Positions 3,958 to 42,225 of a stretch of 64,000 bases of DNA are shown here, piece after piece. How positions within the stretch are numbered: position 1 is the stretch's first letter; every line of letters begins with the position of its first letter. Source of the stretch: a virus. The position numbers were made by a program, and so were the translations under genes. The stretch lies in IMG/VR virus record IMGVR_UViG_3300045988_174992; one strand, given 5' to 3'. The notes under the pieces were generated by a model. It did not search any database, was not told the origin of the DNA, and worked only from the letters and a program-made list of their open reading frames with translations.

Positions 3958-4563
3958 TTACTTTATAAATTCTGAATCATCTATAGTACATATCTTATTC
4001 TCTTTAAATGATTTCTGTACATCTATGATTCTCTGATTAGTACTTCCTCTAAATGGTATTGTTATGTTTCTTTTTTCCTTTACATAAGGTCCATCAATTA
4101 TAACATCACAATTCTTAATTACTTCTTTATGAGGATAATTATTCAAATCTTCAATGAAATATCCCGTATAAAGCCAAATACTCTTTTCTGGATATCTCTT
4201 CTTTATATTAGAAAGAAACTTAGCAAGTTCTTCTAATGCTTGTACAGACTGATCTAATGGGTCACCGCCAGAAATTGTTACACCATCAATATGTTCATCA
4301 CCTATCAAATTCAATATCTTGTCTTTATAAGTGATGTTTGTATATGGTACCATATCATCTAACTTATGACCTTGAGCATATTTCCAAGTATGCTTATTCT
4401 GACAACCAGGACATGCATGTGTACATCCAGATACCCATATAGTTACTCTAAAACCAGGACCATTATTGATATCTGGACCAGTAACTGCTATGATATGTAA
4501 GCCGTTAGACTTGTCTATGTGCAAGTTGTTAGACTTGTCTATATGTAAATCTTTTGTTTCCAT
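3958..4563 (-). CDS. nrdG: anaerobic ribonucleotide reductase activating protein (radical SAM)
   Basis: Carries the CxxxCxxC cluster motif in GPGFRVTIWVSGCTHACPGCQNKHTW, followed by ISGGDPL. It lies next to nrdD. Confidence 0.85.
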   Translation of the reverse strand: METKDLHIDKSNNLHIDKSNGLHIIAVTGPDINNGPGFRVTIWVSGCTHACPGCQNKHTWKYAQGHKLDDMVPYTNITYKDKILNLIGDEHIDGVTISGGDPLDQSVQALEELAKFLSNIKKRYPEKSIWLYTGYFIEDLNNYPHKEVIKNCDVIIDGPYVKEKRNITIPFRGSTNQRIIDVQKSFKENKICTIDDSEFIK

Positions 4564-4577
4564 ATTTATAATATAGA

Positions 4578-4605
4578 ATCAGGATGAACTTAAGTTCACC
4601 CTGAT
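4578..4605 (-). other. intercistronic hairpin between nrdD and nrdG (processing or attenuation site)
   Basis: A 12-bp stem with a 4-nt loop. The single A-C mismatch on the plus strand becomes a G-U pair on the minus-strand RNA, so the structure is strand-specific. Confidence 0.4.
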
Positions 4606-4612
4606 TTGATTT

Positions 4613-5656
4613 TTAAATTAGATTTTGTTCTACATGCTTTAATCGTTTAGAAACTTCATCTTGTTTACCTTCATTCATATTGGAAACATCAGTACTAAGG
4701 TAACCAGTGACCATTCTTAGTTCCTCTATGTTATGGCTTCCACAATGTGGGCATGTTCCATTGAAATCACCTTTGCTATGACAATCTCGGCAGTAATCCA
4801 GTGGAAAATGCAAAGAGAAATATGGAAGATCCTTATCCATTGCATAAACCACTAATTCTTCACAAGCATCTATATTGTTAGTTGCTGAACTTGGCATTTC
4901 AACATAAGTGATGCATCCAGCATTACTGAACTTATCTAATTCACTTTCAATATCAATTTTCTTGAAGCAATCAATATCTTTATATACAGGTACATGAGTT
5001 GAATTTGTAAAGAATTTGTTATCATTATCAGTAACACCTTTAACATCATTACCATATTGTGCTCTGAATTTTGTCATTGCTGTCTTACAAAGTGATTCTC
5101 CTGGAGTCAAATATACTCCAAAATTCAACTTATCATTTTTCTTGAATTCTGCACATCTGTCATTGAATAGCTTTTCAATTCTCTTTCCAAGTTCAAGTCC
5201 TTGAGCTTCTGTCTGGTCACACCCAATCAATATTTGCAATGTTTCTGCTAATCCAATTTGTCCGATAGCTAATGTACCATGTTTCATAGCAGATACAGGA
5301 CCTTCTTCATGGATATATCCTACCATTGTATTGTTTGTCCACATGAATGGAGCAGACTTAGAATTCTGGCTGCAAATCAAAGTAAATCTTTCAAGAAGCA
5401 TTTCTCTTGCTTCATGGATCTTCTTATCAAGCAACTTCATGAATGTTTCTACTACATCTTTGCTACCAGATTCTTTTGCCATCATAGCTAAAGTAGGCAT
5501 AATGATAGTAACAGGGCAAATGTTTCCACGACCATCTTTTTGGTTTGCAGATAACATCCAATTGTCTTGTACTTTACCAGTTTCTGCTATCTTTTTAAAT
5601 ATTTCAAAGAAATAATTTGAATCACAATTGATATCATAACCATTATAAGTTCTACA
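4613..5656 (-). CDS. nrdD: anaerobic ribonucleoside-triphosphate reductase, exon 2
   Basis: Starts CRTYNG... The C-terminus has the Zn ribbon CRDC...CPHCGS and the glycyl-radical motif ELRMVTGYLS. Confidence 0.85.
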   Translation of the reverse strand, partial: CRTYNGYDINCDSNYFFEIFKKIAETGKVQDNWMLSANQKDGRGNICPVTIIMPTLAMMAKESGSKDVVETFMKLLDKKIHEAREMLLERFTLICSQNSKSAPFMWTNNTMVGYIHEEGPVSAMKHGTLAIGQIGLAETLQILIGCDQTEAQGLELGKRIEKLFNDRCAEFKKNDKLNFGVYLTPGESLCKTAMTKFRAQYGNDVKGVTDNDNKFFTNSTHVPVYKDIDCFKKIDIESELDKFSNAGCITYVEMPSSATNNIDACEELVVYAMDKDLPYFSLHFPLDYCRDCHSKGDFNGTCPHCGSHNIEELRMVTGYLSTDVSNMNEGKQDEVSKRLKHVEQNLI

Positions 5657-5953
5657 CATCTTATCTGTTATTACTAACAGGACTGACTATATGTTCCTTA
5701 TTATATAAATTGTATTTTCTATATATTAAGGCCTCACGCTCCGAATTGGTGCTTATCTCCAATTCTACTCCCTTACACTCATCAGGGATAGTCGATACAC
5801 CTTTATGACAATTAAAATTGTCAATTTAGCACGGATCTCATCCATCTATTATAAATGGACCTAACCGTTAGCAGCAGCTTATTTATTTTCTTATGCTGCC
5901 ACACCCATTAAGCATGGTTCGAGAGGTTTTAGATGGGCTGTAGTATTGCACTT
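5657..5953 (-). mobile_element. group I self-splicing intron (ORF-less, 297 nt) inside nrdD
   Basis: The conserved NrdD peptide STMG|CRTY is split here. The 5' exon end GAUGGGU (5960-5954) pairs with an internal guide GCCCAUC (5938-5932), giving a U-G wobble at the splice site. The intron ends in G before TGT. A GUAA-tetraloop hairpin lies at 5665-5680. The region is richer in GC than its surroundings. Confidence 0.85.
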
Positions 5954-7408
5954 ACCCATCGTGCTCATCACTTCATATCTAGTGAATTTCTCTGCTGGTT
6001 TTACTTTAATTTCCCAACTATCTTCAATAGAGTCATAATGACCTTCTAATGACAAATAATCTTCATAATCTGGATGTTCTGACAACCATTTAGCAAATGC
6101 ACAGTATGTTGATTTGGAGAAATTGAGCAAATTCTTCAATGCACGATTCTTTTGCTCTCTATCAAATATATTACCTTTCCAGTTAGTACTCCAATCAACA
6201 TTACAATAATTAGGATAATCACGTTGTGTTGTAGATTTCAATGCTAATCTGAACAAATCATAGTTAGGACCAGGATTATTTTTAGAGCCATGAATTTCTT
6301 TACTGTATTGGAATATGCAACATGGGAATATAGCAGTACGATGATACTTACCAGTACCTTCCAATGTCATATTGATTAATGCTCTAATTATTTCACGACC
6401 TTCCTTTAAAGTACATGTACCATAATTGATGCTAGAAAATGGCAGCTGGGCACCACTACGAGATTGCAAACTATTTAGATTATGACTCATTGCTTCAGTA
6501 GCTTGACTTAATTCCTTCAATGTAGAATTCCAAGCCTTCTTCCATATCATTTTCTTCAATGGTTTCAACAATCCAACACCGGTATAAATTCTATCATCAA
6601 CACTTATATGTTTGATTGATTTAGGATCAATGTTAGGTTTAGCCCACTTCATCAATGGAATTCCATCACACCAGTTTTTGTAATGCTTAAAGAAACTCTT
6701 ACGGAAATATGGTATCATTGACCAATCAAGATGTGATGCAGAAATACCACCAAACTGTTCAAGTGATTGTACTTGGAAATTTACAGCTATCAATTGGAAT
6801 GCCGTACTTAATGAATTAGCAGGACGAATATCACACTGTTTCAATGTAATACCATGTTCAAGAAGAATATCAATCGGATCAGTTAAACAATTATGCTGTC
6901 CAACTGCAAAATTTGATAAATCATGCTGATAAACCATATTTCCTTCATGATTCTTTCTTGCCATCTTCGACATGTTGTTTTTCAAAGCATAATCTTTACA
7001 AACAACTGCTCCAGCTTCACCAATACGGCCACTAAAGCTGTTTTCATCAAGATTGGCATTCTGGTTTACTACATTCTTGGCATAAAGTTTTGTAGCAATA
7101 TTCTTAGCAAGCTTTGTATTTGATTCTCGATACCTAGATCTCTCTTCTCGGTAAATGATGAATTGTTCTGCTGCTTCATTCTCTCCTACCGACATGAGGA
7201 AATCTCTCAAGAAATCTTGTACAGTCTCAATATCAACTACATCTTCTTTCATAGTTTCTAACCAAGCTCTTATTGATTCTGTAAACTTACTAATTAGTCC
7301 ATCAGGAACTTCTTTCTTCACTCCATTCTTATATACTTTTTCAAGTGCATGAATTGGTTTGTTAAGATCAAAGCCTTGGACTTTACCATCTCTTTTCTTT
7401 ACTTTCAT
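5954..7408 (-). CDS. nrdD: anaerobic ribonucleoside-triphosphate reductase, exon 1
   Basis: ATP-cone N-terminus (MKVKKRDGKVQGFDLNK...). The track ORF reads 20 codons into the intron before a stop. The exon ends ...YEVMSTMG. Confidence 0.85.
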
Positions 7409-12588: not shown

Positions 12589-12619
12589 TTATTTTTATTA
12601 TATAAAAGCAAACAAAAAA

Positions 12620-13035
12620 ATGATAAGTTTAACAGAATCATTAAATGTATCTTTGAATGAATCAAAGAATTATTCAGTAAAAAGCGTTAAAGCAGAAGAT
12701 GTTGTTACATTCTTAAGATAAAATCCAGAATATTATTTCTATACTAGAGGATTTGGTTCAAACGCGGCACATTATGGTGCAAAAGTAAATTGTTAGATTG
12801 TGAAATCCAATACCAACCTAAAACAAAGAATTGGTATGTATATTCATATTCAAATCAATATACTGGAGGATTTGAAATGGATGATGATAAATCAATTGAC
12901 TCAATTGATAGTTTAGTTTCAGCAATAGATTCTGCAGATAATACGGATATTAAAATAGGTGGAGGTAAATTTGGTATATATGGTGTTAATGGAAATACAC
13001 CTAATGCAAAAATACAATTAAGAAAGAAAAAATAA
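12620..13035 (+). pseudogene. interrupted small gene (in-frame TAA plus a -1 frame change)
   Basis: From ATG 12620: MISLTESLNV...VVTFLR[TAA 12719-12721]NPEYYFYTRGFGSNAAHYGAKVN. The reading then continues only in the frame of track ORF 12790-13035 (LLDCEIQYQPKTKNWYVYSYSNQY...). Confidence 0.4.
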
Positions 13036-13057
13036 AATTAATTTATTATAAATAAAA

Positions 13058-13085
13058 AGAGCGAAATTCCACAGAATTTCGCTCT
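13058..13085. terminator. bidirectional rho-independent terminator
   Basis: 12-bp stem AGAGCGAAATTC/GAATTTCGCTCT, flanked by an A-run on one side and a T-run on the other. It sits between convergent genes. Confidence 0.75.
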
Positions 13086-13101
13086 TTTGTTTTATTCCAA
13101 G

Positions 13102-14202
13102 TTAGAATGGAAGATCATCAGAACCAGCCGTTGGTGTTGATTCTGTTGTATCTGAAGGAGCAGTGGCAGTAGTTGTTGATGCTGTTGTTGTAGTTGATGG
13201 CAATGGATTTGTTGGGTCATTACCAGCAAGAACTACACTAATCCATGCATTGACACGGGCTGTTACTTCAGGTGACCACTCATGGTAACCAAGCTCTTCA
13301 ATTAGATTAGGACAGAAGCTCTTAATCTTCTCGATTACACCATGATACAACTCACGAAGTTTCTTTGTGTTTTCTTCTGCATTGATTTCTGCAAGAGCTG
13401 TAGCACGAAGATCTGGATCCTTCTGCTTCCAAACTTTCTTTGTCATTTCCTCAACATACTGATCAAGAATAGCTTGCTGATCATCATCAAGTAATGGACT
13501 TCCATCAGGATTAGTACAACTAACTACATCATCAGTAAGTTCAGAAGTATTGTAACTAATCTCGCGAGTCTTACGTTCAGGTGCTTTAGGATCATCTGGA
13601 CCTGGTGTTACCTCAAGGTCAATAGCACGACCAAACAAGAAATCCATTACAGGAATACTTGCTTTCTTAGACTCAGGACTTGGAGCCATCTTAGCATTGA
13701 TTGTCTCCCAAATAGCCTTAGGAAGCTTCCAGAACATGTACTTTCCTACAAGATCTGGCTGATTGTTGTCTTCAATAACCTGAATGAGAGCATAACGAGC
13801 ATAACGCTTGTCGAACAAACCACGACCACCTTTATCCTTAGTCAAAGCCTGCTTCTGCATATTCTCATCCTTTGAGAAATGACACTGTTTCCATGCCTTA
13901 AATACTGGGCAATTCTTGTCATTATTTGTCAATGAACTTACGACAGAGAAGAAGCCATTACTATCTTGCAAAGCATAAGACTGCTGTTCAAGAATACTGT
14001 TTCGAAGATCCCATGGATTATAGATAACCTTGATCTGAGAACGATAAACTCCATCTTCTGCCTTAGAAAGAGCTGGCTTTGGGTGATAAATGTTAGGATT
14101 TCCACCTGAAGTCTGCTGTGGTTGCTCTTGATAAACTGTGAGTTGACTTGGATCGAAACCAAGAATGTCATTTTCAATTGAGTTCAAATTTTCGTTTGTC
14201 AT
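13102..14202 (-). CDS. T4 gp32-like single-stranded DNA-binding protein
   Basis: RYALIQVIEDNNQPDLVGKYMFWKLPKAIWETINAKM resembles the T4 gp32 block [37 protein letters not shown] (recalled from memory). Other features: a Cys/His segment NCPVFKAWKQCH, an S/T-rich linker and the C-terminal tip GSDDLPF. Confidence 0.8.
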   Translation of the reverse strand: MTNENLNSIENDILGFDPSQLTVYQEQPQQTSGGNPNIYHPKPALSKAEDGVYRSQIKVIYNPWDLRNSILEQQSYALQDSNGFFSVVSSLTNNDKNCPVFKAWKQCHFSKDENMQKQALTKDKGGRGLFDKRYARYALIQVIEDNNQPDLVGKYMFWKLPKAIWETINAKMAPSPESKKASIPVMDFLFGRAIDLEVTPGPDDPKAPERKTREISYNTSELTDDVVSCTNPDGSPLLDDDQQAILDQYVEEMTKKVWKQKDPDLRATALAEINAEENTKKLRELYHGVIEKIKSFCPNLIEELGYHEWSPEVTARVNAWISVVLAGNDPTNPLPSTTTTASTTTATAPSDTTESTPTAGSDDLPF

Positions 14203-21395: not shown

Positions 21396-21995
21396 CTAAA
21401 TGGCATTATCATGCTCTAATTTCCATTTAGGTGTTTCTTCAATAAATGTTGACACAAAATCATCTAATATATCTTCTGGTGTATCTGTATTGTCAATCAA
21501 CTTTACAATATCATCAGATTTCTTATATTCATTGAATAAACTTAAAATATTATCAATTTCCTTTTCTGTAAAATCTTGATTTTCTTTCAACAAATTTACT
21601 CGATCTTTATACTCTTCTGGATTTCTCCAAAGCATAATGTAATTAGTCAATTTGAAGTTTGCTTCAATTTCTCTACCAAAATACTTTTCTACCACATGTT
21701 CACGATCAAATAAATCTGCAAATACATTATCAGTAAGCAAAAGACGATCCATTACAATTGGTCTATCAGTACCATTCAACTTTGCCATTGTATATAAGTC
21801 ATCAAGTACTTTACGAATTGTTTTTCTAATCCACTCTTCAAATTTTTGTGGATTTTTATAATCTACTCTTTCTTTTTCTGCTGATACTGGATTATATACT
21901 AAAAAATCATCAAATCTATTCTTCAAATTTTCTAATAATGTTCCTTTGCCAGTCCTATCACAACCCTCAAGAACTATAATGCGAATTTTTTCCAT
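21396..21995 (-). CDS. tmk: thymidylate kinase-like dNMP kinase
   Basis: P-loop in IIVLEGCDRTGKGTL (compare the Tmk pattern EG.DG.GKST) and a following DR motif (MDRLLL). Confidence 0.65.
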   Translation of the reverse strand: MEKIRIIVLEGCDRTGKGTLLENLKNRFDDFLVYNPVSAEKERVDYKNPQKFEEWIRKTIRKVLDDLYTMAKLNGTDRPIVMDRLLLTDNVFADLFDREHVVEKYFGREIEANFKLTNYIMLWRNPEEYKDRVNLLKENQDFTEKEIDNILSLFNEYKKSDDIVKLIDNTDTPEDILDDFVSTFIEETPKWKLEHDNAI

Positions 21996-22120
21996 TTTTA
22001 TTTACAAACATAAATGTATTTATTACCATCAGTAGATGATTGATATTTATATTCAGGAATATGTGTTTTATTTTCTATCCACTTCATGTTTAATCAGTTT
22101 AAATATATTTTATATATAAA

Positions 22121-23350
22121 TTAGAATTTTGGCATATATTTTTCATACTTTTCAAATACAAATCTACGTTGTCTTTGAACAATCTCTCTATATAATGGTT
22201 CATTATTTTCTACTTTCTTAAGCTTATCAGCATAATCTTGTCCATTCTTACAATATGTATGTTCATATAACCAATCATCACACAATTCATGATTTGGATC
22301 AAAAGCTTCATCTACAAAACATACAATATCCATAAGCATCAAATCAAACCACCTTGGAGATATCTGATTACCTAATATACATTTGTTATGTGTTATCAAC
22401 GAAGACTTAGCATTTGATGGAACAAATTCCAACAAATCACGATAAGGCATATTTTTTACAAGCTCAATATCATGGTCAAAATCTATATGTTTAAAGAAAT
22501 TCTTATTACCTCCTTTAATTACTAAAAATGGTTTGTCAACTTTACTGTAAAATTCTTCTGTTCTAGCTATTCTATCTGAATCTTTAATATATCCATAATA
22601 GCAAGCAGAATACTTCTTATCATCAAAATCATAATTTCTCATTCTCAAATCCAAATCATCATTTAATGTGATGTAATAGTAAACATTAAAATTGAACCAA
22701 GACTTTGGCAATATCTTTATTCTATTCTCTTTAACATATTTATCATAATCTAATCCACAAAATGCTAAATCAAAATCATTTTCTATATTGCATATATCAT
22801 CATATCTAGATTCTAATAAAGATATTTCGTTTGCATAATTGTTTTCATTTATTCCATGGTTCCATGATGTTTTTAAATCTTTCTTTATAGCATGGCGATA
22901 AGTATGATGTCTAAAAAACCAAAGATTATATACTTCTGGATCATCATTAATGAATATAATTTTGTCATTTTGACCTTTTGATTTCCACCATTCATATATT
23001 CTATTCATACAAAATGGAAATGTCATAATAGCCATACCACCAAAATTATTTGTTTGAGCAGGAACAACCCACATATCATTTATATGATAATCTAGTAGCA
23101 AGTCTTTCTTTTCAATTCCATATATCAATGGACAATCTTTCAGTATGTTATTATATTTTTCACCGGAATTAGACAATGATGTTGCTAAAACATATACTTT
23201 ATCATATTTCAAAAACTCCGTCAAATATTTCCAATAATGATATACATTATACATTGTAATGTTATCTCTATTCACAAGTATATGTCTTACTGGTAATGTT
23301 ATACATGCTATTCTGCCCTTTCCATTAGGTTCTTCTATATGTTTAATCAT
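22121..23350 (-). CDS. T4 beta-glucosyltransferase (BGT)-like DNA glycosyltransferase
   Basis: Block-wise resemblance to T4 BGT as I recall it: VVPAQTNNFGG vs VVNSSINFFGG; KIIFINDDPEVY vs KIYYLFTDIRLPF; CYYGYIKDSDR vs VIYGGSFRSGQR; ISPRWFDLMLMDIVCFVDEAFDPNH vs ITLRVWETMASDAVMLIDEEFDTKH. Confidence 0.6.
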   Translation of the reverse strand: MIKHIEEPNGKGRIACITLPVRHILVNRDNITMYNVYHYWKYLTEFLKYDKVYVLATSLSNSGEKYNNILKDCPLIYGIEKKDLLLDYHINDMWVVPAQTNNFGGMAIMTFPFCMNRIYEWWKSKGQNDKIIFINDDPEVYNLWFFRHHTYRHAIKKDLKTSWNHGINENNYANEISLLESRYDDICNIENDFDLAFCGLDYDKYVKENRIKILPKSWFNFNVYYYITLNDDLDLRMRNYDFDDKKYSACYYGYIKDSDRIARTEEFYSKVDKPFLVIKGGNKNFFKHIDFDHDIELVKNMPYRDLLEFVPSNAKSSLITHNKCILGNQISPRWFDLMLMDIVCFVDEAFDPNHELCDDWLYEHTYCKNGQDYADKLKKVENNEPLYREIVQRQRRFVFEKYEKYMPKF

Positions 23351-23406
23351 AAAATACTGTATCTCAACTTATTTCTAAGTTAAAAATACAGTATTAATTT
23401 TATGAT

Positions 23407-24000
23407 TTACTTATAGATTTCAAGTTCATCTTTATCCATCAGCATTAGTTGATATAATATATCTGCAAATCCTCCATGTCCACCTTGATATTTAGAAACA
23501 TAGTGAAAAAATTGCTTTATATATTCAAAGCAATTATCTGTAGTAGCACATATATTTGCTTTTGATGCGGCATTCAAATCACTTGGACTATCACCAATAA
23601 AAGCAACAATGTATCCAGCATCTCTGCATTTCCTAACCATTTCTTCTCTTTCTTTTGAATTTGCATTTGTAGCATGTAACATGAAAGAATTACTTATTCT
23701 TCTATCTGTAATATTACCTCCAGTCTTATCATCTGTTACGAATAAGAATTCCCATCCAAGATCCTTAGCAATATTAAATAATTCCTTATCATGGCAACCA
23801 TAAGTCTTGAATCGTTTTCTGTTTTCATCATAAGTCATATTTCCATCTGTCAATATGCCATCACAATCAGAAATTATGATTTTCTTCATATTGATATATT
23901 CTAAGGTATGCTTGGACTTAAAATAATCAGCCCAAGTCAAACCTTCTTTCAATATTATTCTTGATGTTTTGAATTTACTTTTTTCCATTAGTACATTCAT
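23407..24000 (-). CDS. KdsC-type HAD-IIIA sugar-phosphate phosphatase
   Basis: Motif I in IISDCDGILTDG, plus the C-terminal FIGDSPSDLNAA. The true start may be the internal MKKIIISD. Confidence 0.65.
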   Translation of the reverse strand: MNVLMEKSKFKTSRIILKEGLTWADYFKSKHTLEYINMKKIIISDCDGILTDGNMTYDENRKRFKTYGCHDKELFNIAKDLGWEFLFVTDDKTGGNITDRRISNSFMLHATNANSKEREEMVRKCRDAGYIVAFIGDSPSDLNAASKANICATTDNCFEYIKQFFHYVSKYQGGHGGFADILYQLMLMDKDELEIYK

Positions 24001-25447
24001 TAATTATATTAGACAATCCAGAAATAGCATACTCAAATACAATATTCAATTTCATAATATCTTTTGCAAAGATTGGAAGCATACTAAGCAAATGAAGATA
24101 AATAGCTGTTTCAATAAACACATCACAATCTTCTATTTTTGGAAGTTCATCTACTTTATATGTCATTTCCTTTCTCAAAGCATCATCCAATCCAATCTCT
24201 ACCATATAAGCTTCTGATTGGTCAACAATTGGATGACAGAAAAATGATCCATTTCTTCTTGATATTGGATTATACAGTTTAATATCTCCAGTCATATTTA
24301 CAAGAACATTATGCGAATTGATGTTTCCATGAGTCAGTACCCATTCATCATTCGCTAAACCATCTATGAGAATATCACATGCATTATCTATAAGTGTTTG
24401 AATTTCTGCAAATGTTATGTTATTTTCAAAAAGCCTACGTGTATCACAAATTCCCTTCAATGGTTTACCATTATATTCTTCTAACAGAAATTTTACTGAA
24501 TATGACAATGGCACATCTACTTTATATCTTACAAAATCATTTAAAAGATTGGTAAGATTTATCTTTGATGCATGTGTATATCCTTCAAGATTATGCATAT
24601 CACAAGCATATCCATCTTCTGTCTTACTTACTGGCATATCTACAACATAATCACTAATTCCAGGATTATAAGATAAGAAAGAAGTCCAATCATACTGATA
24701 GTTCAAATGCTCATTTGTTTTTGATACGTATTGCATAGATTCTTTATCAGTATATGAAACCTCCATATCAGTAGGTAAAACCAAATCTTTCTGATAAGAA
24801 GTTGACATGATCTTCTTATATTCTGATAATGACTTATATTCAGTTATTTTTGTATTGATATTTGATTCAACAAAAGTAATCATACCATCATTTACTTTTT
24901 CTTGAATAATATCAATCAAATCTTTATTTTCATCACATGGCTTAGTTGGAATAACCTCTGAAATATCTTTGATCCAAAAAATACCTGGAACATTTCCATC
25001 ATAAGCAAATGATCTGTTTACAATCTTACCATCTTCTATATTATATCGATATTTTGCATCATTTACAGTAAAAATCACACAATTGTCTTTATCTTCAATT
25101 TTTCTATCCAATTTGAATTCATCATTATCAAACAAAATATCTGACCAGAAAAACAAAACATTCTTCTTTGGAAGCCAATCATATACAGAAGCTAAAGTAT
25201 TGCCTGAACCATTAGTATTGTTTGATACAATCACATCAACATTAAGATGATTGATTTCAATATAAGCTTTCATGATATTTGCAAACTTTTTATTTACAAC
25301 AATACTTATTGTATTTGCTTCATCAAAATAATCTAATTGCTTAATCAAAATTGGTGTTCCATCTTTTGATGGTAACAATATTTTAGGAAAACAAGAAAGT
25401 TCATTAAATCTGGTCTGTAATCCACCAGCTACTATTACAACATTCAT
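23975..25447 (-). CDS. bifunctional sugar-1-phosphate nucleotidyltransferase / kinase-like protein
   Basis: The N-terminal VVIVAGGLQTRF...PKILLP is the NTP-transferase G-loop. The C-terminal LTHGNINSHNVLVN...DIKLYNP resembles the APH/choline-kinase catalytic loop, but the usual Asp is Asn. Confidence 0.6.
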   Translation of the reverse strand: MNVVIVAGGLQTRFNELSCFPKILLPSKDGTPILIKQLDYFDEANTISIVVNKKFANIMKAYIEINHLNVDVIVSNNTNGSGNTLASVYDWLPKKNVLFFWSDILFDNDEFKLDRKIEDKDNCVIFTVNDAKYRYNIEDGKIVNRSFAYDGNVPGIFWIKDISEVIPTKPCDENKDLIDIIQEKVNDGMITFVESNINTKITEYKSLSEYKKIMSTSYQKDLVLPTDMEVSYTDKESMQYVSKTNEHLNYQYDWTSFLSYNPGISDYVVDMPVSKTEDGYACDMHNLEGYTHASKINLTNLLNDFVRYKVDVPLSYSVKFLLEEYNGKPLKGICDTRRLFENNITFAEIQTLIDNACDILIDGLANDEWVLTHGNINSHNVLVNMTGDIKLYNPISRRNGSFFCHPIVDQSEAYMVEIGLDDALRKEMTYKVDELPKIEDCDVFIETAIYLHLLSMLPIFAKDIMKLNIVFEYAISGLSNIINECTNGKK

Positions 25448-25459
25448 ATTTTATCTTTT

Positions 25460-26572
25460 TTATAAATTATTAATATTAATATAGAAACATCTATCACATG
25501 ATTTCATATTATATGAATTCATATCATATTGTTCCTTTGTTATGGCAAATTGACATCTTGCTTTTGGTGACATCATTTCCCATAAAGTTGCATGATTTAT
25601 GAAGTCTAAATCTTCAAAATAAGGAACAACCACATATTCTGATGACAACATAGTGAAATGTGTATTTCTATCAGTTGGTAATTTGATGAAAACAACATTT
25701 GAATTGAATTTCTTTTTCAAATCTTCCATAGCACCACTGTTGTTTGGATCTGTATAATACACAATAACTACATCGGCATAGTCATAATTGATATATGAAA
25801 TGACATCATCCACTTTATACCCTTCATCAGTCAATCTATAAGGAATATAATAAATAGAATAAGTACCTGTATCAAGACTATTAACTGTTTTAATAGTATC
25901 TTTCAATCCAAAATCTGTCATATAATCAAAATATTTCAGATTACGGTCAACCATCATATAATAAGGGTATATTGAACAATTTGGTAATGAAAATTTCTTT
26001 AATTGTGTTGGACTTTCTACAATTGACCAATCAGAAAGTTGAAACAATTTAGTATTCAAAATGTCATATCCCTCTAAGAAATTTCTTGTATGTTCATTAT
26101 CAATCTTACAAACTGGGCACCAGAAAACCTTTTCAAGTCTTCTAAACCAATATTGATCGCACAATAGATTTCCTAAGAATTGACTTTCAAATATTACAAT
26201 ATTAAAATCATTACCATTATCTGGATTGTTTATAAGTTCAAACAATTCCATTTCCATCTTACCCACAACATCATAATCACTTCTTTGTTCACCTGCATGC
26301 TTACCAAAATTATCTGACCAAATGATTTTAATGTTATCATTGTCTTTTATCCAACTATCAACAATATCATGTGATTCATTATTTTTTGGAAGCAATATTG
26401 TTAAACTTTTGAAATTCTTATGATGTTCAAAAAATGTAATGAAACGTACTACATTTCCATCACTATCTAAATTATACTTATTAGTCTCTCTATTAATAGA
26501 AGATATAATAGGTATGTACAAGATATTCTTATCTTGCATGTGATCGTCTACAAATTTCTTATCTATTGTCAT
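25460..26572 (-). CDS. hypothetical protein (370 aa), possible second glycosyltransferase
   Basis: The start ATG at 26572 overlaps the upstream stop (ATGACAATAGATAA). The operon position suggests a role in the sugar pathway, but no firm motif was found. Confidence 0.3.
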   Translation of the reverse strand: MTIDKKFVDDHMQDKNILYIPIISSINRETNKYNLDSDGNVVRFITFFEHHKNFKSLTILLPKNNESHDIVDSWIKDNDNIKIIWSDNFGKHAGEQRSDYDVVGKMEMELFELINNPDNGNDFNIVIFESQFLGNLLCDQYWFRRLEKVFWCPVCKIDNEHTRNFLEGYDILNTKLFQLSDWSIVESPTQLKKFSLPNCSIYPYYMMVDRNLKYFDYMTDFGLKDTIKTVNSLDTGTYSIYYIPYRLTDEGYKVDDVISYINYDYADVVIVYYTDPNNSGAMEDLKKKFNSNVVFIKLPTDRNTHFTMLSSEYVVVPYFEDLDFINHATLWEMMSPKARCQFAITKEQYDMNSYNMKSCDRCFYININNL

Positions 26573-26882
26573 GATCCTTTTCTTGCAATTTACATGATAC
26601 TTCATGAATAATATTGAATATGCTATCAATAAGATAGTCAAATTCTTCTTTATATTCACTACAAAGCCTTGAACCTTCTAATTGCTTATGTACATTTTTC
26701 ATTACATGATTCCATCTGTCTGGTTGTACAATAGGTTCACATGCTTTCTTCTTAACTCTTCCTATCAATATAGCATTATTCATTCTAGAAATCAAGAGGT
26801 TAACCAATGATCGGTCACCTCTTGTAATTTCTGCTCTACATGATTTGAGAAGTTTCAAATCCGAGTTAGTTATGTTAGTCAT
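26559..26882 (-). CDS. hypothetical protein (107 aa), translationally coupled to the U32-family gene
   Basis: The start ATG at 26882 overlaps the upstream stop (ATGACTAA). The longer track ORF 26559-27014 overlaps the U32 gene and is not credible. Confidence 0.5.
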   Translation of the reverse strand: MTNITNSDLKLLKSCRAEITRGDRSLVNLLISRMNNAILIGRVKKKACEPIVQPDRWNHVMKNVHKQLEGSRLCSEYKEEFDYLIDSIFNIIHEVSCKLQEKDHDNR

Positions 26883-28020
26883 ACAAATTATGTTCTTTAG
26901 CAAATTGTTCACAATAACGACAAGAATAACCACATTCATGGTTTTCACATTCCCATCCATTTCCATCCATCCACTTATTGATGAATCCATCAAGTTTCTT
27001 ATTTGGAATATCAATATCTGTTTTAGACTTCAATTCTGTCTTACCATCATAAATCGAGGAAAGAGGTTTCCATAATCCGAGAAGATTTCCATCATAAGTT
27101 TCTGACATATAAGCATTCATTATATATTCAAGATACTCAGTTGTTCCTGTTCTTCCTGATAACTTAAAATAATTTACTCCTGTTTTTTCTCGATAAATTT
27201 TCTGATCCTCTGGTCTAATCCATCGCATTCTTAGCCAAGCTTCTGGAGTAGATGAACGTGCAGACATACAATAACCCATTGGATAATTATTGTAAGACAT
27301 ACTATCCTCTTTTGTTTTGTTACATGCATGACAAAGATAACAAGAATCTCTGAATACACAATGAGTAGCATAATGATTTCCATTTGCATCTACTCCGGCA
27401 ACACCACAAAATTCATTTGCCATACATTCTAATATGCAACCATTTCTATCACAATAATCTTGTGCTTTAATCAAAAATTCCTTATTACGATTCTTAAGAA
27501 TTGAATTACAGAACTTATTTACTCCAAATGTTTCATGATAATACTTCAACTGGGTTACAGTATCAATATGAGAAATACATGACATCTCAATTTCAATATC
27601 CGATACTTCTCTAATAAAAAGCAACATCATTGGATTTGCCACAGTAATACGTACTACACCAATATTTTCAAGCCATTTTACAAGATCCTGAATATCCTTC
27701 TTATGATTCAACATCTCTATCTTTGAACCATAAGGTTGAATTGAATTCATTGTATAGTTGAATGCAATATTGTTATTCTTCAACTTCTTTACATAATTTG
27801 CAAAGAATTCTTTATCAATATCTGGCAATCTCCAACCTGGTCTTGCAGTTACTGCTTCATTACTTGCATCAGATCCAAAAAATTCTACAATCTGTGACTT
27901 ACCCTTATATTTCTTATTCAACTCTACAGCAACATCAATCAATTTAGGATCGAAATTACAACCTACTTTATAAAAGTTCATGTTCTTGTTACTGTAATCA
28001 AAATTAGGTTTCCAACTCAT
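26875..28020 (-). CDS. peptidase-U32-family Fe-S enzyme (RlhA/TrhP/UbiU-like)
   Basis: Blocks VRITVANPMMLLFIRE, IEMSCISHIDTVTQLKYY and NYFKLSGRTGTTEYLEYIMNAY match the U32 pattern as I recall it from E. coli YegQ (...DALIMSDPGLIMLVRE, IHLSVQANAVN, LKIEGRTKS.YY). It also has the Cys cluster ECMANEFCGV...HCVFRDSCYLCHAC and a C-terminal CENHECGYSCRYC. Confidence 0.6.
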   Translation of the reverse strand: MSWKPNFDYSNKNMNFYKVGCNFDPKLIDVAVELNKKYKGKSQIVEFFGSDASNEAVTARPGWRLPDIDKEFFANYVKKLKNNNIAFNYTMNSIQPYGSKIEMLNHKKDIQDLVKWLENIGVVRITVANPMMLLFIREVSDIEIEMSCISHIDTVTQLKYYHETFGVNKFCNSILKNRNKEFLIKAQDYCDRNGCILECMANEFCGVAGVDANGNHYATHCVFRDSCYLCHACNKTKEDSMSYNNYPMGYCMSARSSTPEAWLRMRWIRPEDQKIYREKTGVNYFKLSGRTGTTEYLEYIMNAYMSETYDGNLLGLWKPLSSIYDGKTELKSKTDIDIPNKKLDGFINKWMDGNGWECENHECGYSCRYCEQFAKEHNLYD

Positions 28021-28054: not shown

Positions 28055-28089
28055 GATAATATAGTAATTAGACTAAAACAGGTTCAAAC
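28055..28089 (-). promoter_or_regulatory. Bacteroides-type -33/-7 promoter of the U32/glycosyltransferase operon
   Basis: Minus strand reads AGTTTGAACCTGTTTTAGTCTAATTACTATATTATC (21-nt spacer). The -33 box lies in the loop of the upstream hairpin. Confidence 0.45.
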
Positions 28090-28106
28090 TATTGTCTGAA
28101 CCTGTT
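28077..28106 (-). terminator. hairpin at the end of gene 28089-28337
   Basis: 10-bp stem AACAGGTTCA/TGAACCTGTT, followed by TTTTAG on the minus strand. Confidence 0.45.
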
Positions 28107-29267: not shown

Positions 29268-30341
29268 TTGAAAATGAAGTACAATGGAACAAACTACATT
29301 ACTGAACTGAAATCTATAGAATATATAGTAGAGAAGAACAGTAACAGTAAAGTAGAAAATCATACACAATTTACTAAGCTTAAGAAAGTAGAAAGAATAA
29401 TATTGATAGGTGAACTTTACTTGAATTCAGTAAAGATGCTTAAGAGAGATAAGATAAAAGTAGAATATGCAGATCCAACTAAGCTCAATTTTTCTTTCAA
29501 AGATGATAAGGTACATATATACAGTGGAGAGAAAGATTTACCTGATATAGTACTTACTAAAGCAGATTCTAAGAATACCATAGTATTGATGCGTAGTGGA
29601 TATACTAAGGAAGTGATAGCAGCTTTACTTGATGCCATCCAAGAATTAGATATACTGATATTGAACAACCAAGAAGCAGTAGCTATGTCATCTGACAAAT
29701 ATGCAACTGCATGTTTCTTGACAAAATCAGAACTTCCACAGCCAAAGTATGTACTTGCAACTTCTAGTGATATAGATAAAGAAGATCATAAGAAGCTAGA
29801 TGAAAAGCTAAAGCAACTCTATGGTAAGCTGGATGACGAATTAAAGTATGTTTGCAAGATATTGAATGGTCATGGTGGTAAAGGTGTATTTTGCTGTCGC
29901 GGAAAAAACATTGTATCTATATTGCAATGTTTGTTCAAACTGAAAGAAAACTGCCCTATACTCATACAAGACTTTCAAGAAATAAAAGATGGTGATATCA
30001 GAGCTCATGTACTTACATTGAATGGAAAGCAAAAGATATTGTCTTCTATCATGAGAAAGAAGGGAAAGGATTTCCGAACTAATCTCAGTCTTGGGTGTGA
30101 TATGGAAGATAATTACAAGATGACTCCAGAACAAGAAAAACTAGCTTTAGATGCTGCTAAAGCATCTGGATTGGAATGGTGTGGTGTAGATATGCTGCCA
30201 TTACAGAATGGAAATACTATAATAGTAGAATTGAATGGTGCACCAGGACCAAGTTCACCTATCAATGATCCTAACATAGAAGAAAATAATTTTAAGTTCT
30301 TCGAAAAGCTAGTAGAAGCTATAAATGAACTTTGTAAATAA
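29268..30341 (+). CDS. RimK-family ATP-grasp ligase (paralog 1)
   Basis: KILNGHGGKGVFCC, IQDFQEIKDGDIRAHVL, DFRTNLSLGC and GVDMLPLQNGNTIIVELNGAPG match the RimK pattern (GS.G.GV, iQeyi...g.DiR, fRsN...GG, GVD......V.EvN.sPG). Confidence 0.8.
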   Translation: MKMKYNGTNYITELKSIEYIVEKNSNSKVENHTQFTKLKKVERIILIGELYLNSVKMLKRDKIKVEYADPTKLNFSFKDDKVHIYSGEKDLPDIVLTKADSKNTIVLMRSGYTKEVIAALLDAIQELDILILNNQEAVAMSSDKYATACFLTKSELPQPKYVLATSSDIDKEDHKKLDEKLKQLYGKLDDELKYVCKILNGHGGKGVFCCRGKNIVSILQCLFKLKENCPILIQDFQEIKDGDIRAHVLTLNGKQKILSSIMRKKGKDFRTNLSLGCDMEDNYKMTPEQEKLALDAAKASGLEWCGVDMLPLQNGNTIIVELNGAPGPSSPINDPNIEENNFKFFEKLVEAINELCK

Positions 30342-32091
30342 AATGGAAAAGGAATATAAGAATATAGAAAATGCAAACATAAATGAAGCAATGGCGCTTC
30401 TGAAAAATGATACCAAGTTAGAGATAAAGAATGTAATATGCTTCTATGTTGGAGAAAATAAAGTAAAGAGCTATGATGAGGCAGTAAAAGAAAAAGAAGA
30501 AGATTGGTCTTATCAAGACTATTTGACTATTTGCTGTCATAAGAGAAAGCTGAATCTTGTATGGTTGAATAAAGCTACGGTACGATTTACCTATTCTAAT
30601 CATATCATATCTATAGATGATGATATAACAGATATGCATTTCTCATTGAAGCATTCTAATATTCATGATACTATCATATTTCAAGGTCAGGCCAATGATG
30701 ACAATAAGAAAAACTATATTGGATTGATGAGAGCATTTGAATATGAAGGTTTCTTCATGCTGAATACTATAGATGAAATCATCATAGCATCTGACAAGTA
30801 TCTTGCATCTAACTTGCTAGCCAAAGAGAATATTCCACAACCTGGATATGTATTGATAACAAAAGAATTGATGGAAGACTTGAATACTGAATGCCATGAT
30901 ACTAGAGAAAGTTTCTGGAAGATGCTTGATTCTATTTATAAAGATAATGAGAACATAAATGAACTGAAAGAAAACAGGCAATATGTAGTAAAGATATTGA
31001 ATGGCAGTCTTGGTATTGGTGTATTCATTTGTAATCATGATGAAATAGAAGGAATACTGCAAGCAATGTTTACTGTTGACAAAGAAGCAGAATTCATCAT
31101 ACAAGAATATAAAGAGAATACTGGAGACATTCGTGTACATGCATTTTCTGTTGATGGTGCCAATTATGAGATACTTGCTTGCATGAAACGTGATAAGATA
31201 AGTGGTGACTTCAGAAGCAATGTTTCATTAGGAGCTAAGACTGAAGAATATCAGATGACAGACAAACAAAAAGAAATTGCATTGAAGGTCGCTAAGCTTT
31301 CTGGATGCAGATGGGTTGGTATTGACTTGATGGCTTGTACTGATGGAGACTTTGTTATAGAATACAATTCAAGTCCTGGTGTTCAAGGAATATCCCAACA
31401 AATCAAGCATAACATGTTTGATATTGTGATAGATAAGATAGAAGCATACATGAAGAATAATGCTATATATTATACTGATGACTTTGAATTTGGTCAAGAC
31501 AAAGGCAGATGCTTTACATCATACAATAAAGACACTATTCTTGAACTTTGGGAGCATGATTGGTCATTCATATCTAGCAAGAGACAAGAAGTAATGTACA
31601 ACTGCTTACTTATGCAACCAGGTCTTTTCTATAAGATACATGGTAAAGACAAACCAGAATATGGATTAGATTGCTCTGGATACATCAAATATGTAATGAA
31701 GAAGGCATTGAATGTAAAGACACCTAACATGTGTGTTGACTTCTTCACTATATTTACTGATAATGATTGGGAAAGAATATCTGTTGATGATCTTAAGCCT
31801 GGTGATATAGGTGTAAAGAATGAATCTACTATATTGAATCACTGTGGTATATATGCAGGTGCAGGAAAATGGTTTGATACTTCTTATCTTTATGGAGTAC
31901 AATTATCTGACTATTCACACTTCAAATACTTCTTTAGAATAAAGAATATAGATACTGATGCTTTGGGAGAAAAGACTGATCATTTAGTAAGAAAACTCAT
32001 TTCTTCTGGTGTATTGCCAAGACCAGAAGATGAAATAACTGTTGCTCCATCCACTATTGGTGACCCATTAGTAGTATCAATAGATTCATAG
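30325..32091 (+). CDS. RimK-family ATP-grasp ligase (paralog 2) fused to a C-terminal NlpC/P60 cysteine peptidase
   Basis: ATP-grasp blocks: KILNGSLGIGVFIC, IIQEYKENTGDIRVHAF, DFRSNVSLGA and GIDLMACTDGDFVIEYNSSPG. NlpC/P60 blocks: YGLDCSGYIKYVM...LKPGDIG...NHCGIYAG. The start may be the ATG at 30343. Confidence 0.8.
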   Translation: MNFVNKMEKEYKNIENANINEAMALLKNDTKLEIKNVICFYVGENKVKSYDEAVKEKEEDWSYQDYLTICCHKRKLNLVWLNKATVRFTYSNHIISIDDDITDMHFSLKHSNIHDTIIFQGQANDDNKKNYIGLMRAFEYEGFFMLNTIDEIIIASDKYLASNLLAKENIPQPGYVLITKELMEDLNTECHDTRESFWKMLDSIYKDNENINELKENRQYVVKILNGSLGIGVFICNHDEIEGILQAMFTVDKEAEFIIQEYKENTGDIRVHAFSVDGANYEILACMKRDKISGDFRSNVSLGAKTEEYQMTDKQKEIALKVAKLSGCRWVGIDLMACTDGDFVIEYNSSPGVQGISQQIKHNMFDIVIDKIEAYMKNNAIYYTDDFEFGQDKGRCFTSYNKDTILELWEHDWSFISSKRQEVMYNCLLMQPGLFYKIHGKDKPEYGLDCSGYIKYVMKKALNVKTPNMCVDFFTIFTDNDWERISVDDLKPGDIGVKNESTILNHCGIYAGAGKWFDTSYLYGVQLSDYSHFKYFFRIKNIDTDALGEKTDHLVRKLISSGVLPRPEDEITVAPSTIGDPLVVSIDS

Positions 32092-40896: not shown

Positions 40897-42225
40897 TTAT
40901 TTTAGATATTTTAATTCTTTCAAATACTTTGTACAAATTGCATTTCCATAAAGATAAGCAATTACACTCTTCATTGGATCATTTATGATATATGAAGTCA
41001 ATTTCATCCAAATAATACCAACGATAATCTTTATATTTGTATCAATTGGCATATCATCCAAATCAATTTGTGTAATTGAAGAAAAATCACCGGATGGATA
41101 TTTCAATTTAAGATTCATACCATCAGAATAATCAATTTCTTCAATTGTAACATAAGGAGCACTATTGAATCTTGAATATCCATTAAGTCCATAGCAGAAT
41201 TTTGCAATATCATATTCTGCCATTCCTAATCCAATTGTCTTAAGGTTTCCAAAATATCCACGTGGATCAATAAAGATTACATTACCATCTTTATCAATCA
41301 TTGTATTATCTGTATTTGGATCACCGTGACAAAGGCATGCATTGAAATTGACTTCATTATTCTCATACCATTTCTTTAATGCATCCATCAATACATTAAA
41401 ATGTGTTGTAATTGGCATGTAATCAATACATCTTACTTCAGTTTCCTCAATGAAATAATCAATCAGTTTCTTACATGGATTTACTCTAGTATATACTTTT
41501 CCAATTAATTCATTATAGAATGCTCTTCTGATATCTTCATCTTCATCATCTACATCTATATCAACATCATTAATAGTATGTAAAGCTTTGATTACATTAG
41601 AAATCAATTTCTTAAAATCTCCATTTTTGTAATACCATTCTTGTGCTGTTACTCCATCGATTTTATTCAAAATCAATTCATGTTTGTTTTCATCATATCC
41701 TTGTTTTCCACACAAACATGGTATATTGCTATATCTGTCATAGAAATCATTTTCAATCTTTTGTAATTTGATAGCATCTTCTGTTTTTGCAATCTTAATT
41801 ACTTTATCATCTTCAATTTTAATCTGATTGAAATATCTGCATGTATTTTTAGTTGACAAATCCCTAAGATATTTCTTTTGGTCAAATTCATCTCTAATAC
41901 CTCTATCCCAACATTCAATAGAAAAAGTTTTTGTCAAATCACCCATCCTATCAATTTCAGAAATTACATGTACTCTATCATAATATTCTCTATTATGGCA
42001 AAGAAATGAATTTAACAACTCAGCATATTCATGAAATGCCTCATAAACATAAATATCACCATCATATTTATCAAGCAACTCATCAATTTTTCTTTCAATT
42101 ATAGTTTTTTCTCCATCTGTAACCAAGTAAAATGGAAAAACCAACTCTAAATTAAGCTCCATATAATGGCTTTCTGGATAATGTGACTGAACAACAAATA
42201 AACAATTCTTTTTCATTTTCATCAA
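40897..42225 (-). CDS. protein-kinase-fold small-molecule (sugar/choline-type) kinase
   Basis: CLCHGDPNTDNTMIDKDGNVIFIDPRGYFG is the canonical H.D....N ... D catalytic and Mg-binding pattern of APH/choline-kinase-like enzymes. The ~130-aa N-terminal domain is unknown. Confidence 0.6.
   Translation of the reverse strand: MMKMKKNCLFVVQSHYPESHYMELNLELVFPFYLVTDGEKTIIERKIDELLDKYDGDIYVYEAFHEYAELLNSFLCHNREYYDRVHVISEIDRMGDLTKTFSIECWDRGIRDEFDQKKYLRDLSTKNTCRYFNQIKIEDDKVIKIAKTEDAIKLQKIENDFYDRYSNIPCLCGKQGYDENKHELILNKIDGVTAQEWYYKNGDFKKLISNVIKALHTINDVDIDVDDEDEDIRRAFYNELIGKVYTRVNPCKKLIDYFIEETEVRCIDYMPITTHFNVLMDALKKWYENNEVNFNACLCHGDPNTDNTMIDKDGNVIFIDPRGYFGNLKTIGLGMAEYDIAKFCYGLNGYSRFNSAPYVTIEEIDYSDGMNLKLKYPSGDFSSITQIDLDDMPIDTNIKIIVGIIWMKLTSYIINDPMKSVIAYLYGNAICTKYLKELKYLK

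Follow-up and report, generated by a model that had tools for sequence, protein, structure and literature searches.

A putative oxygen-independent route to glycosylated 5-hydroxycytosine DNA in a jumbo phage of the human gut

Phages RB69, DLP3 and their relatives replace the cytosine of their DNA with arabinosylated 5-hydroxycytosine (5hoC) (PMC13326640). The hydroxyl group is introduced into dCMP by a flavin-binding ThyA homolog that uses O2, as indicated by 18O2 labelling, with D169N as the diagnostic change, and UDP-arabinose is made via an isomerase, AfhE and AfhF (PMC13326640). Glycosyl-5hoC DNA was described only in 2025–2026, with a hydroxyl group that comes from O2. The gut phage studied here points to an anaerobic route. 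It is represented by IMG/VR virus record IMGVR_UViG_3300045988_174992, of which we analyzed a stretch of 64,000 nucleotides (the window), found in reversed orientation at bases 201,096–265,095 of a human-gut metagenome contig of 276,731 bp. The window carries a six-gene operon that encodes, among others, a U32-family Fe-S protein, a chorismate mutase and two glycosyltransferases, and an isomerase/kinase gene pair lies 13 kb from it (Table 1). We estimate a probability of about 55% that the operon and this pair produce glycosylated 5hoC DNA, most likely arabinosylated, through the U32 protein, in a phage of an anaerobic gut bacterium.

Certain hydroxylations that proceed without O2 and take their oxygen from prephenate require the U32 proteins UbiU/UbiV, RlhA and TrhP (PMC10990095). 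All characterized functions of the family are O2-independent, prephenate-requiring hydroxylations, including those at C5 of cytidine by RlhA and of uridine by TrhP (PMC10990095; PMC5727448; PMC6599085). C4-18O-shikimate has been used as a label, and prephenate has been proposed to release the donated hydroxide (PMC10990095). The report on the RB69-type phages mentions RNA hydroxylation by RlhA and TrhP without linking it to gp50, the U32 protein of RB69, and contains no reference to chorismate, prephenate or U32 (PMC13326640). A full-text literature search gave no link between U32, prephenate or chorismate mutase and phage DNA modification; He et al. 2026 and Mahler et al. 2025 lay outside this search.

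Glycosyltransferases and sugar-nucleotide genes

The six translationally coupled minus-strand genes run from 28020 down to 22121 and are followed by a thymidylate-kinase-like (Tmk-like) gene. A sequence-only reading had proposed them as a DNA sugar-hypermodification operon, and this proposal is borne out by the T4 beta-glucosyltransferase (BGT)-family protein GT409, the arabinosyltransferase 1 (AraT1) homolog p370 and the AfhE-family genes. All seven open reading frames (ORFs) listed in that reading are present, and an independent gene caller run on the source contig found the same genes, placing the start of the HAD gene 12 nt later and leaving the others identical. The start/stop overlaps ATGACTAA at 26882-26875 and ATGACAATAGATAA at 26572-26559 are present in the sequence, as is the gene overlap at 23975-24000.

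By its sequence profile, GT409 is a genuine enzyme of the T4 BGT family (GT63). Alignment of the two families with hhalign gave 99.96% (E 4.3e-39) over 359 columns, with residues 13–409 of GT409 matching residues 1–351 of BGT. Among 1.84 billion proteins, an exhaustive HMMER search found 66 matches; these include true BGT homologs, with E values against T4 BGT down to 2.8e-50, as well as full-length intermediates. T4 BGT (1bgt) was the only significant match in a profile search of PDB sequences. The catalytic Asp100 of BGT is equivalent to D137 of GT409, and R195 and R269 to R260 and R333; E272 is changed to D336 and R191 to K256. D137, R260 and R333 are invariant or nearly so within the GT409 family. 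The likeness to T4 BGT noticed earlier is thus a full-length homology in which the catalytic Asp and the UDP-binding Arg are kept, and profile-profile alignment reproduced the four blocks that had been listed (NNFGG/NFFGG, FINDD/LFTD, YYGYIKDSDR/IYGGSFRSGQR and SPRWFD.../TLRVWE...). The family placement was made with sequence profiles, as an AlphaFold2 (AF2) model from 6 close sequences reached a pLDDT of only 41 and was discarded.

The p370 protein had been described as an unknown that is possibly a second transferase, and the fold of its model and its homology to AraT1 support this. Forty-five homologs were found, and the AF2 model (pLDDT 92) has a GT-B fold. A Foldseek search with this model matched LmbT, MshA, BshA and sucrose-phosphate synthase; Lee et al. 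obtained the same PDB templates for the base-proximal transferases of RB69, DLP3 and Rhizobium phage RL38J1 (PMC13326640). Against the T4-like AraT1 family, hhalign gave 97.4% (E 1.2e-11, 278 columns). A relationship of p370 to BGT was also tested and was rejected.

The nucleotidyltransferase domain of NT490 matches phrog_4098 (positions 3–191, E 2e-27), AfhE (residues 4–155, E 5e-11) and the PDB nucleotidyltransferase 6jq8. Its earlier description as a nucleotidyltransferase fused to a kinase-like domain is upheld by the phrog_4098 and AfhE matches, and the kinase domain is degenerate. In this C-terminal domain (23975-24880), HGNINSHN..YNP stands in place of the HGDPNxxN..IDP of AfhE and kin442. 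That this domain might be a second, active kinase was considered and rejected, since its catalytic Asp residues are replaced. These motifs make it probable that the domain is a pseudokinase and that the kinase activity resides in kin442, encoded by the separate gene at 40897-42225. The HGDPNTDN..IDP motif of kin442 is intact, and the protein matches phrog_4098 (positions 153–505, E 6e-55), AfhE (residues 165–507, E 7e-30) and the Pfam APH domain. The inclusion of kin442 and the SIS isomerase SIS217 (40897-42902) in the same pathway, already suggested by the sequence-only reading, agrees with the matches to the Mosigvirus isomerase, AfhE, phrog_5670 and phrog_4098.

HAD197 matches the NCBIfam models for KDN-9-P phosphatase (E 1.4e-15) and KdsC (E 1e-9), at scores below their cut-offs (57.8 bits, cut-off 180; 37.6 bits, cut-off 107). 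Its earlier naming as a KdsC-type phosphatase therefore holds for the relationship and fails at the equivalog or subfamily level. A hidden Markov model (HMM) of the gp51-type HAD did not match it. We propose on this basis that HAD197 belongs to a KdsC-related subfamily rather than to the equivalog, as a non-orthologous replacement of AfhF/gp51. A route via free sugar had been suggested; by analogy with AfhE and AfhF, arabinose-5-phosphate would instead be converted through arabinose-1,5-bisphosphate and arabinose-1-phosphate to NDP-arabinose. The Tmk-like kinase is the counterpart of RB69 gp45, DLP3 gp78 and RL38J1 gp214, and an HMM of it matches every class of cluster in Table 1.

The operon is a relative of the arabinosyl-5hoC system, not of a hydroxymethylcytosine system. 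The RB69 modification, which had been taken for arabinosyl-hydroxymethylcytosine, is arabinosyl-5hoC (PMC13326640), and the acceptor here is therefore likely 5hoC rather than hydroxymethylcytosine.

The U32 protein and its chorismate mutase

The first gene of the operon encodes a U32-family enzyme, as had been read from the sequence; it scores 24.2 bits against Pfam Peptidase_U32 (PF01136; cut-off 22.4), a marginal sequence match, and the homolog in comparative locus L049 scores 40.2 bits. It matches phrog_5757 (E 1.5e-111) and is 46% identical to the U32 protein of Mosigvirus, the 'peptidase' of RB69-type phages. The gene is not peculiar to this phage: it is conserved in RB69-type clusters (RB69 gp50) and was found in 222 GenBank phage records. 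Alignment with a four-sequence profile of E. coli UbiU, UbiV, RlhA and TrhP by hhalign gave 89.6% (E 1.9e-6). The invariant Cys residues are C205, C221, C227 and C251, together with a C-terminal CX4CX3CX2C motif.

The 107-residue protein encoded next, formerly an unknown, is a chorismate mutase by Pfam CM_2 and also matches the NCBIfam chorismate mutase models. Its gene is start/stop-coupled to both neighbors, those of U32 and p370. Six of the eight active-site residues of the E. coli enzyme (EcCM) are kept (R11, R28, K39, R51, S84 and Q88); D48 is replaced by Q and E52 by W, and both replacements are conserved among the jumbo-phage copies. At the positions of R51/E52, the phage chorismate mutases have R-W in the jumbo type, R-L or R-Y in the fusion types and I-E in the T4-like type. 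We take E52 of EcCM to bind the C4 hydroxyl of the substrate. A chorismate mutase with W in place of E52 may hand prephenate directly to U32.

The association of U32 with chorismate and prephenate supply recurs in other phages. In 13 of the 16 T4-like loci, a CM_2 ORF (38–48 bits, cut-off 27) lies between the genes of U32 and the ThyA homolog. This ORF has 79–107 codons and is found at about 11100–11900 in each of L032–L048. Fifty-one GenBank phages, each with a facultative anaerobe as host, carry the same ORF, always between the U32 and ThyA genes; examples are Enterobacter phage Entb_45, Serratia phage LC53 and Shewanella phage Thanatos. The 79-residue ORF that follows U32 in Mosigvirus (hyp143) was tried as a divergent chorismate mutase and rejected, as it gave no Pfam match and no alignment. 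A DAHP synthase (DAHPS)::chorismate mutase fusion adjoins U32 in L007 and L020–L023, and the operon of L007 is reduced to U32, this fusion, p370 and Tmk. L012 carries U32, chorismate mutase, Tmk and p370 together with a shikimate dehydrogenase gene and an RmlC-like gene; a RimK-like gene, a DUF7487 gene and an OmpA-like gene also accompany U32 there.

Origin of the hydroxyl group and competing explanations

The comparison covered 38 IMG/VR loci with U32 homologs, the surroundings of p370 homologs and, as references, loci of Mosigvirus, Acinetobacter phage Maestro and Dhakavirus JS10, and the six-frame ORFs of all of these were scored with purpose-built HMMs. Gene identities, homologies, synteny and co-occurrence are established by the analyses given here. 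The conserved core consists of U32, an AraT1-like glycosyltransferase and a Tmk-like kinase, with chorismate mutase or shikimate-pathway genes beside U32 in most classes. The synteny of U32 with DNA-modification genes is invariant in >35 loci from very different phage lineages. The operon had been described as built around the BGT-like gene; in its relatives the core is U32, chorismate mutase, the AraT1-like glycosyltransferase and the Tmk-like kinase, and the BGT-like gene, which neither L007 nor classes C and D possess, is an addition to it.

The distribution of the ThyA homolog divides these loci. In each of the 16 enterobacterial T4-like loci, it lies no more than 1.5 kb from U32; the ThyA-family HMM found it in none of the 18 p370-type (non-enterobacterial) loci, at distances of up to 10 kb on either side. 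A thymidylate-synthase homolog, which the sequence-only reading had named as a gene to look for, is absent from the window and the 10 kb beyond it, where the ThyA-family HMM and tblastn gave nothing better than E 0.9 (controls, E 1e-132). In phages of Acinetobacter, an aerobe, AraT1 is present in 57 and U32 in at most 3 of these; the Maestro locus is without U32.

Two loci connect U32 with deoxynucleotide enzymes in another way. L046 and L050 encode a MazG::Tmk fusion, a methyltransferase, a dCMP-deaminase-like protein and U32, and have no sugar genes. In L046 (7607-11095; also in L050), the fusion is of the PRA-PH/MazG::Tmk-like type and the methyltransferase is S-adenosylmethionine-dependent. 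By analogy with the conversion of ho5U to mo5U in tRNA, a cluster of this type might make a 5-methoxy-pyrimidine in DNA.

From this evidence we infer how U32 acts, which base and sugar are involved, that hydroxylation takes place on the nucleotide rather than on DNA, and in which order the two transferases work. The phage chorismate mutase would convert host chorismate to prephenate. With prephenate as the oxygen donor, and no O2, the U32 Fe-S enzyme would introduce a hydroxyl group at C5 of a deoxycytidine nucleotide. U32 would in this way replace the flavin- and O2-dependent ThyA-type 5-hydroxy-dCMP synthase of RB69-type phages. The Tmk-like kinase would then phosphorylate the modified deoxynucleoside monophosphate for incorporation into DNA. 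NDP-arabinose would be made from ribulose-5-phosphate by the SIS isomerase, kin442 (1-kinase), the KdsC-type HAD (5-phosphatase) and NT490 (nucleotidyltransferase) in this order. On the DNA, p370 would add the base-proximal sugar, and GT409 would add a second sugar or modify a subset of sites.

We propose U32 and chorismate mutase as the O2-independent 5-hydroxylase for several reasons. U32 proteins are known to need a chorismate mutase only for prephenate-dependent hydroxylation, and RlhA and TrhP hydroxylate C5 of pyrimidines. The known phage hydroxylase needs O2, which is unavailable in an obligate-anaerobe host, and U32 is the sole hydroxylase candidate in clusters without a nearby ThyA homolog. 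U32 is also (nearly) absent from phages of a strict aerobe and optional beside the O2-dependent enzyme. Its linkage to Tmk-like kinase, MazG and deaminase genes favors action on a deoxynucleotide rather than on DNA. The pairing of ThyA homolog and U32 fits, by analogy, the cellular pairs of O2-dependent and O2-independent enzymes, TrhO/TrhP and UbiIHF/UbiUV. We give even odds to the narrower claim that phage U32 and chorismate mutase are the first O2-independent, prephenate-dependent C5 hydroxylases that act on deoxycytidine nucleotides or DNA.

Several observations weigh against this reading. Aligned with single sequences of UbiU, UbiV, RlhA and TrhP, the phage U32 gives only E ~0.02, so that the likeness is remote, and a U32-family profile found nothing significant among PDB sequences. 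The four invariant Cys residues, candidate ligands of a [4Fe-4S] cluster, lie in the segment that is homologous to those enzymes and map only in part: C227 and C251 correspond to C176 and C232 of UbiU, and the spacing of C205 and C221 differs. The phage chorismate mutase may be impaired or repurposed because W replaces the catalytic-site residue E52, and class D clusters and Mosigvirus are without a phage chorismate mutase. Neither a dCTPase, the other enzyme named by the sequence-only reading, nor a dCMP deaminase was found in the 64-kb window. To our knowledge, the hydroxylase activity of a U32 protein has never been reconstituted in vitro, and among the substrates known to us, RNA and a quinone, there is neither DNA nor a deoxynucleotide.

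Other points on this side count at the same time for an alternative with the same glycosylation module, in which a gene in the remaining ~200 kb encodes an enzyme of the thymidylate-synthase family that makes 5hoC or 5-hydroxymethylcytosine (5hmC), and U32 and chorismate mutase are otherwise employed, in a sugar or heterocycle redox step or only as a backup. As ~74 of 277 kb were inspected, the rest of the genome could hold a gene for a ThyA-, ThyX- or TET-type enzyme. In T4, BGT-family enzymes act on 5hmC, and all 5hoC phages studied by experiment rely on a ThyA homolog. Lee et al. annotate RB69 gp50 as a 'sugar or heterocycle reductase' (PMC13326640). U32 is dispensable where a ThyA homolog exists, as Dhakavirus JS10 and Acinetobacter phages lack it. 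However, the ThyA gene stands beside AraT1 and U32 in all 16 T4-like loci and is missing within 10 kb on either side in all 18 p370-type loci, and an O2-dependent flavin hydroxylase would be unworkable in a strict anaerobe. A sugar redox role would also leave the recurrent linkage to chorismate mutase, DAHPS and shikimate dehydrogenase unexplained. We consider this alternative unlikely, and it is the best of the rivals.

U32 and chorismate mutase could also hydroxylate RNA of the host or phage (ho5U34 in tRNA, ho5C in rRNA) and so tune translation, beside an unrelated DNA glycosylation cassette. The characterized U32 enzymes of nucleic acids do act on RNA, and RlhA gives the longest single-sequence alignment with the phage protein. 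This is nevertheless improbable in view of the start/stop coupling with the AraT1-like transferase, the invariant synteny with DNA-modification genes, the company of deoxynucleotide enzymes in L046 and L050, and the result that no tRNA genes were found in the 64-kb window. An auxiliary (moron) cassette for host capsule, lipopolysaccharide or Kdo-type sugar synthesis, which the KdsC- and KdsD-like domains and the generic GT-B folds typical of envelope glycan pathways would suit, is very improbable, since GT409 is a full-length member of a DNA-specific family, p370 is homologous to phage AraT1, the kinase and nucleotidyltransferase match the phage-specific AfhE family phrog_4098, a nucleotide kinase lies within the unit, and flippase, polymerase and lipid-carrier genes are missing.

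If the U32 route is correct, it extends the use of prephenate as an oxygen donor from RNA and quinones to DNA precursors, and U32 with chorismate mutase is the anaerobic twin of the O2- and flavin-dependent 5-hydroxy-dCMP synthase. It would give a role to RB69 gp50, which is conserved in hundreds of T-even-like phages, and to the small chorismate mutase ORFs, and would explain O5-glycosylated and possibly O5-methylated (L046) DNA in phages of strict anaerobes. The DNA of abundant gut jumbo phages is then predicted to resist restriction enzymes, CRISPR and standard sequencing chemistry. The route can be tested in E. coli with existing RB69-type phages, with and without oxygen.

Phage context and comparison with known systems

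The element is a jumbo phage (277 kb), judging from the size of the contig and from near-identical and related contigs of 148–294 kb in IMG/VR. Other phage genes in the window encode a baseplate protein, a lysozyme and a gp32-like single-stranded DNA-binding protein. The anaerobic ribonucleotide reductase NrdD and its activase NrdG are also encoded and mark an anaerobic replication niche. NrdD is divided by a gap of ~230 nt into an ATP-cone and N-terminal half (5891-7408) and a C-terminal half that carries the glycyl-radical domain (4613-5659), adjoined by NrdG at 3958-4563; this could reflect a split gene, an intron or an intein remnant.

The host is plausibly Bacteroidota-like rather than a member of the Firmicutes, because the genes lack Shine-Dalgarno sites: such a motif precedes 1 of the 49 genes in the window (background 6%). 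A search with the OmpA-like gene gave phage contigs binned as Romboutsia and weak Bacteroidota matches, and no clear host. Relatives are binned in Romboutsia and Erysipelotrichales metagenome-assembled genomes, probably as a result of base composition. Among 50,697 phage records, megablast with the operon and tblastn with p370 and the jumbo-type chorismate mutase found no match, and this variant of the operon is thus absent from isolated phages and known only from metagenome contigs.

Upstream of the operon, a 13-bp hairpin looks like the terminator of the preceding gene and the operon boundary. Its folding energy is −19.7 kcal/mol (z −5.7), and 0 of 200 shuffled sequences folded equally well; a terminator scan did not flag it. 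The TTTG proposed earlier as a −33 element falls within the 3' arm of the hairpin, and a sigma-70 promoter scan, which does not cover Bacteroidota-type promoters, scored 67 (shuffled sequences, 60.7 ± 7.3). The hairpin boundary fits an independent transcription unit starting at the operon.

Table 1. Positions of the features in the window and in the compared loci, with the classes of U32 cluster (CM, chorismate mutase; L numbers, compared loci).
Feature	Position or loci	Strand	Remarks
Anaerobic ribonucleotide reductase NrdD (two ORFs) and activase NrdG	3958..7408	-	NRDD E 2.6e-70, 2.9e-47; Fer4_12 E 5.6e-41
Thymidylate-kinase-like nucleotide kinase, 199 aa	21396..21995	-	phrog_761 thymidylate kinase E 7e-10
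GT409, T4 beta-glucosyltransferase-family (GT63) DNA glycosyltransferase, 409 aa	22121..23350	-	family-versus-family hhalign
HAD197, KdsC/KDN-9-P-type HAD phosphatase, 197 aa	23407..24000	-	putative Ara-1,5-P2 5-phosphatase
NT490, sugar-1-phosphate nucleotidyltransferase with degenerate kinase-like domain, 490 aa	23975..25447	-	homolog of AfhE N-terminal domain
p370, GT-B glycosyltransferase, 370 aa	25460..26572	-	homolog of base-proximal arabinosyltransferase 1 (RB69 gp46:47, DLP3 gp79)
AroQ-type (type II) chorismate mutase, 107 aa	26559..26882	-	Pfam CM_2 50.6 bits, cut-off 27
U32-family Fe-S protein, 381 aa	26875..28020	-	ortholog of RB69 gp50
Hairpin, 13 bp, then UUUUAG	28077..28106	-	directly after stop codon of upstream 82-aa ORF
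kin442, AfhE kinase-domain homolog, separate gene, 442 aa by TTG start	40897..42225	-	putative arabinose-5-P 1-kinase
SIS217, arabinose-5-phosphate isomerase (SIS domain), 217 aa	42249..42902	-	phrog_5670 E 4.6e-23; Mosigvirus isomerase E 1.6e-10
DAHPS::CM fusions beside U32	L007 11118-12236; L020 8399-9430; L021 8323-9384; L023 7290-8354		shikimate-pathway genes
Stand-alone DAHP synthase beside U32	L031 9384-10130		shikimate-pathway gene; order Tmk - U32 - DAHPS
Shikimate dehydrogenase domain protein near U32	L012 15309-16031		shikimate-pathway gene
Class A, enterobacterial T4-like	16 loci		AfhE - gp51-type HAD - U32 - small ORF - ThyA homolog - AraT1 - Tmk; ThyA 16/16; CM_2 13/16
Class B	window, L003-L009		U32 - CM - p370 - NT490 - HAD - GT409 - Tmk; ThyA absent; CM present
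Class C	L020-L023		p370 - isomerase - AfhE - Tmk - DAHPS::CM - HAD - U32; ThyA absent; CM as fusion
Class D	L010, L024-L027, L047		p370 - isomerase - AfhE - HAD - U32; ThyA absent; CM absent

Some further features were seen in the window and in the compared loci. Two adjoining genes for RimK-like ATP-grasp proteins, the second fused to an NlpC/P60 domain, are divergent from the operon at 29268-32091. A 426-aa ORF without a Pfam or PHROG match (43019-44299, plus strand) is divergent from the isomerase/kinase pair. Giant ORFs of 2172 aa (53101-59619) and 1277 aa (59716-63549) are present, the latter also without a PHROG match. Genes for DnaK (HSP70) and DnaJ homologs lie just beyond the window start (L052, 11374-14461). 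In L005, an insertion of ~1.2 kb (12558-13786) separates the p370 and NT490 homologs. The HMMs of the p370-type glycosyltransferase and the Tmk-like kinase match one stop-to-stop ORF of ~600 aa in each of L025 (2591-4408), L026 (5318-7003), L027 and L047 (both 5237-7054), which is possibly a transferase::kinase fusion.

Compared with T4 BGT (PDB 1BGT), GT409 retains homology over the full length, the NFFGG motif, and the equivalents of Asp100, R195, R269 and E272. However, it is 58 residues longer, with insertions in the N-terminal half, R191 has become K256, and its acceptor is likely 5hoC or a sugar already on 5hoC, not 5hmC.

The phage U32 protein has its domain in common with RlhA (ho5C2501 of 23S rRNA), TrhP (ho5U34 of tRNA) and UbiU/UbiV (anaerobic ubiquinone), and it shares with them the link to chorismate and prephenate supply. 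In the Fe-S region, RDSCYL and NYPMGYC of the phage protein resemble GRCYLS and GYPT-LC of UbiU, respectively. The phage protein differs from these enzymes in its very remote sequence, its extra invariant C-terminal CX4CX3CX2C motif and its presumed substrate, a deoxynucleotide or DNA. A chorismate mutase gene adjoins the gene of the phage protein, which is not so for the cellular enzymes.

The clusters of RB69 (Mosigvirus), Acinetobacter phage DLP3, E. coli phage HY126 (Afh genes) and Serratia phages LC53 and 92A1 (PMC13326640) share with the operon and the isomerase/kinase pair an AraT1-type glycosyltransferase, an AfhE-type kinase and nucleotidyltransferase, an arabinose-5-phosphate isomerase, a HAD phosphatase step, a Tmk-like kinase and U32. 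In contrast to those clusters, the ThyA-type 5-hydroxy-dCMP synthase is missing from the cluster, the window and the 18 related loci, and U32 has its own coupled chorismate mutase. This operon belongs to a 277-kb jumbo phage of the human gut, and the others to 170-kb T-even phages of Proteobacteria. AfhE is split between the nucleotidyltransferase-pseudokinase NT490 and the separately encoded kinase kin442. The phosphatase is of the KdsC type and not of the gp51/AfhF type, and the second transferase belongs to the BGT family and is not GT4-like. In the glycosyl-5hoC system of Rhizobium phage RL38J1 (Pootjesviridae), a ThyA homolog and hexoses are used, and there is no report of U32 or chorismate mutase. 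Relative to the known systems, the new elements are therefore the BGT-family second transferase, the split AfhE, the different phosphatase, and a U32/chorismate mutase module in the place of the O2-dependent hydroxylase.

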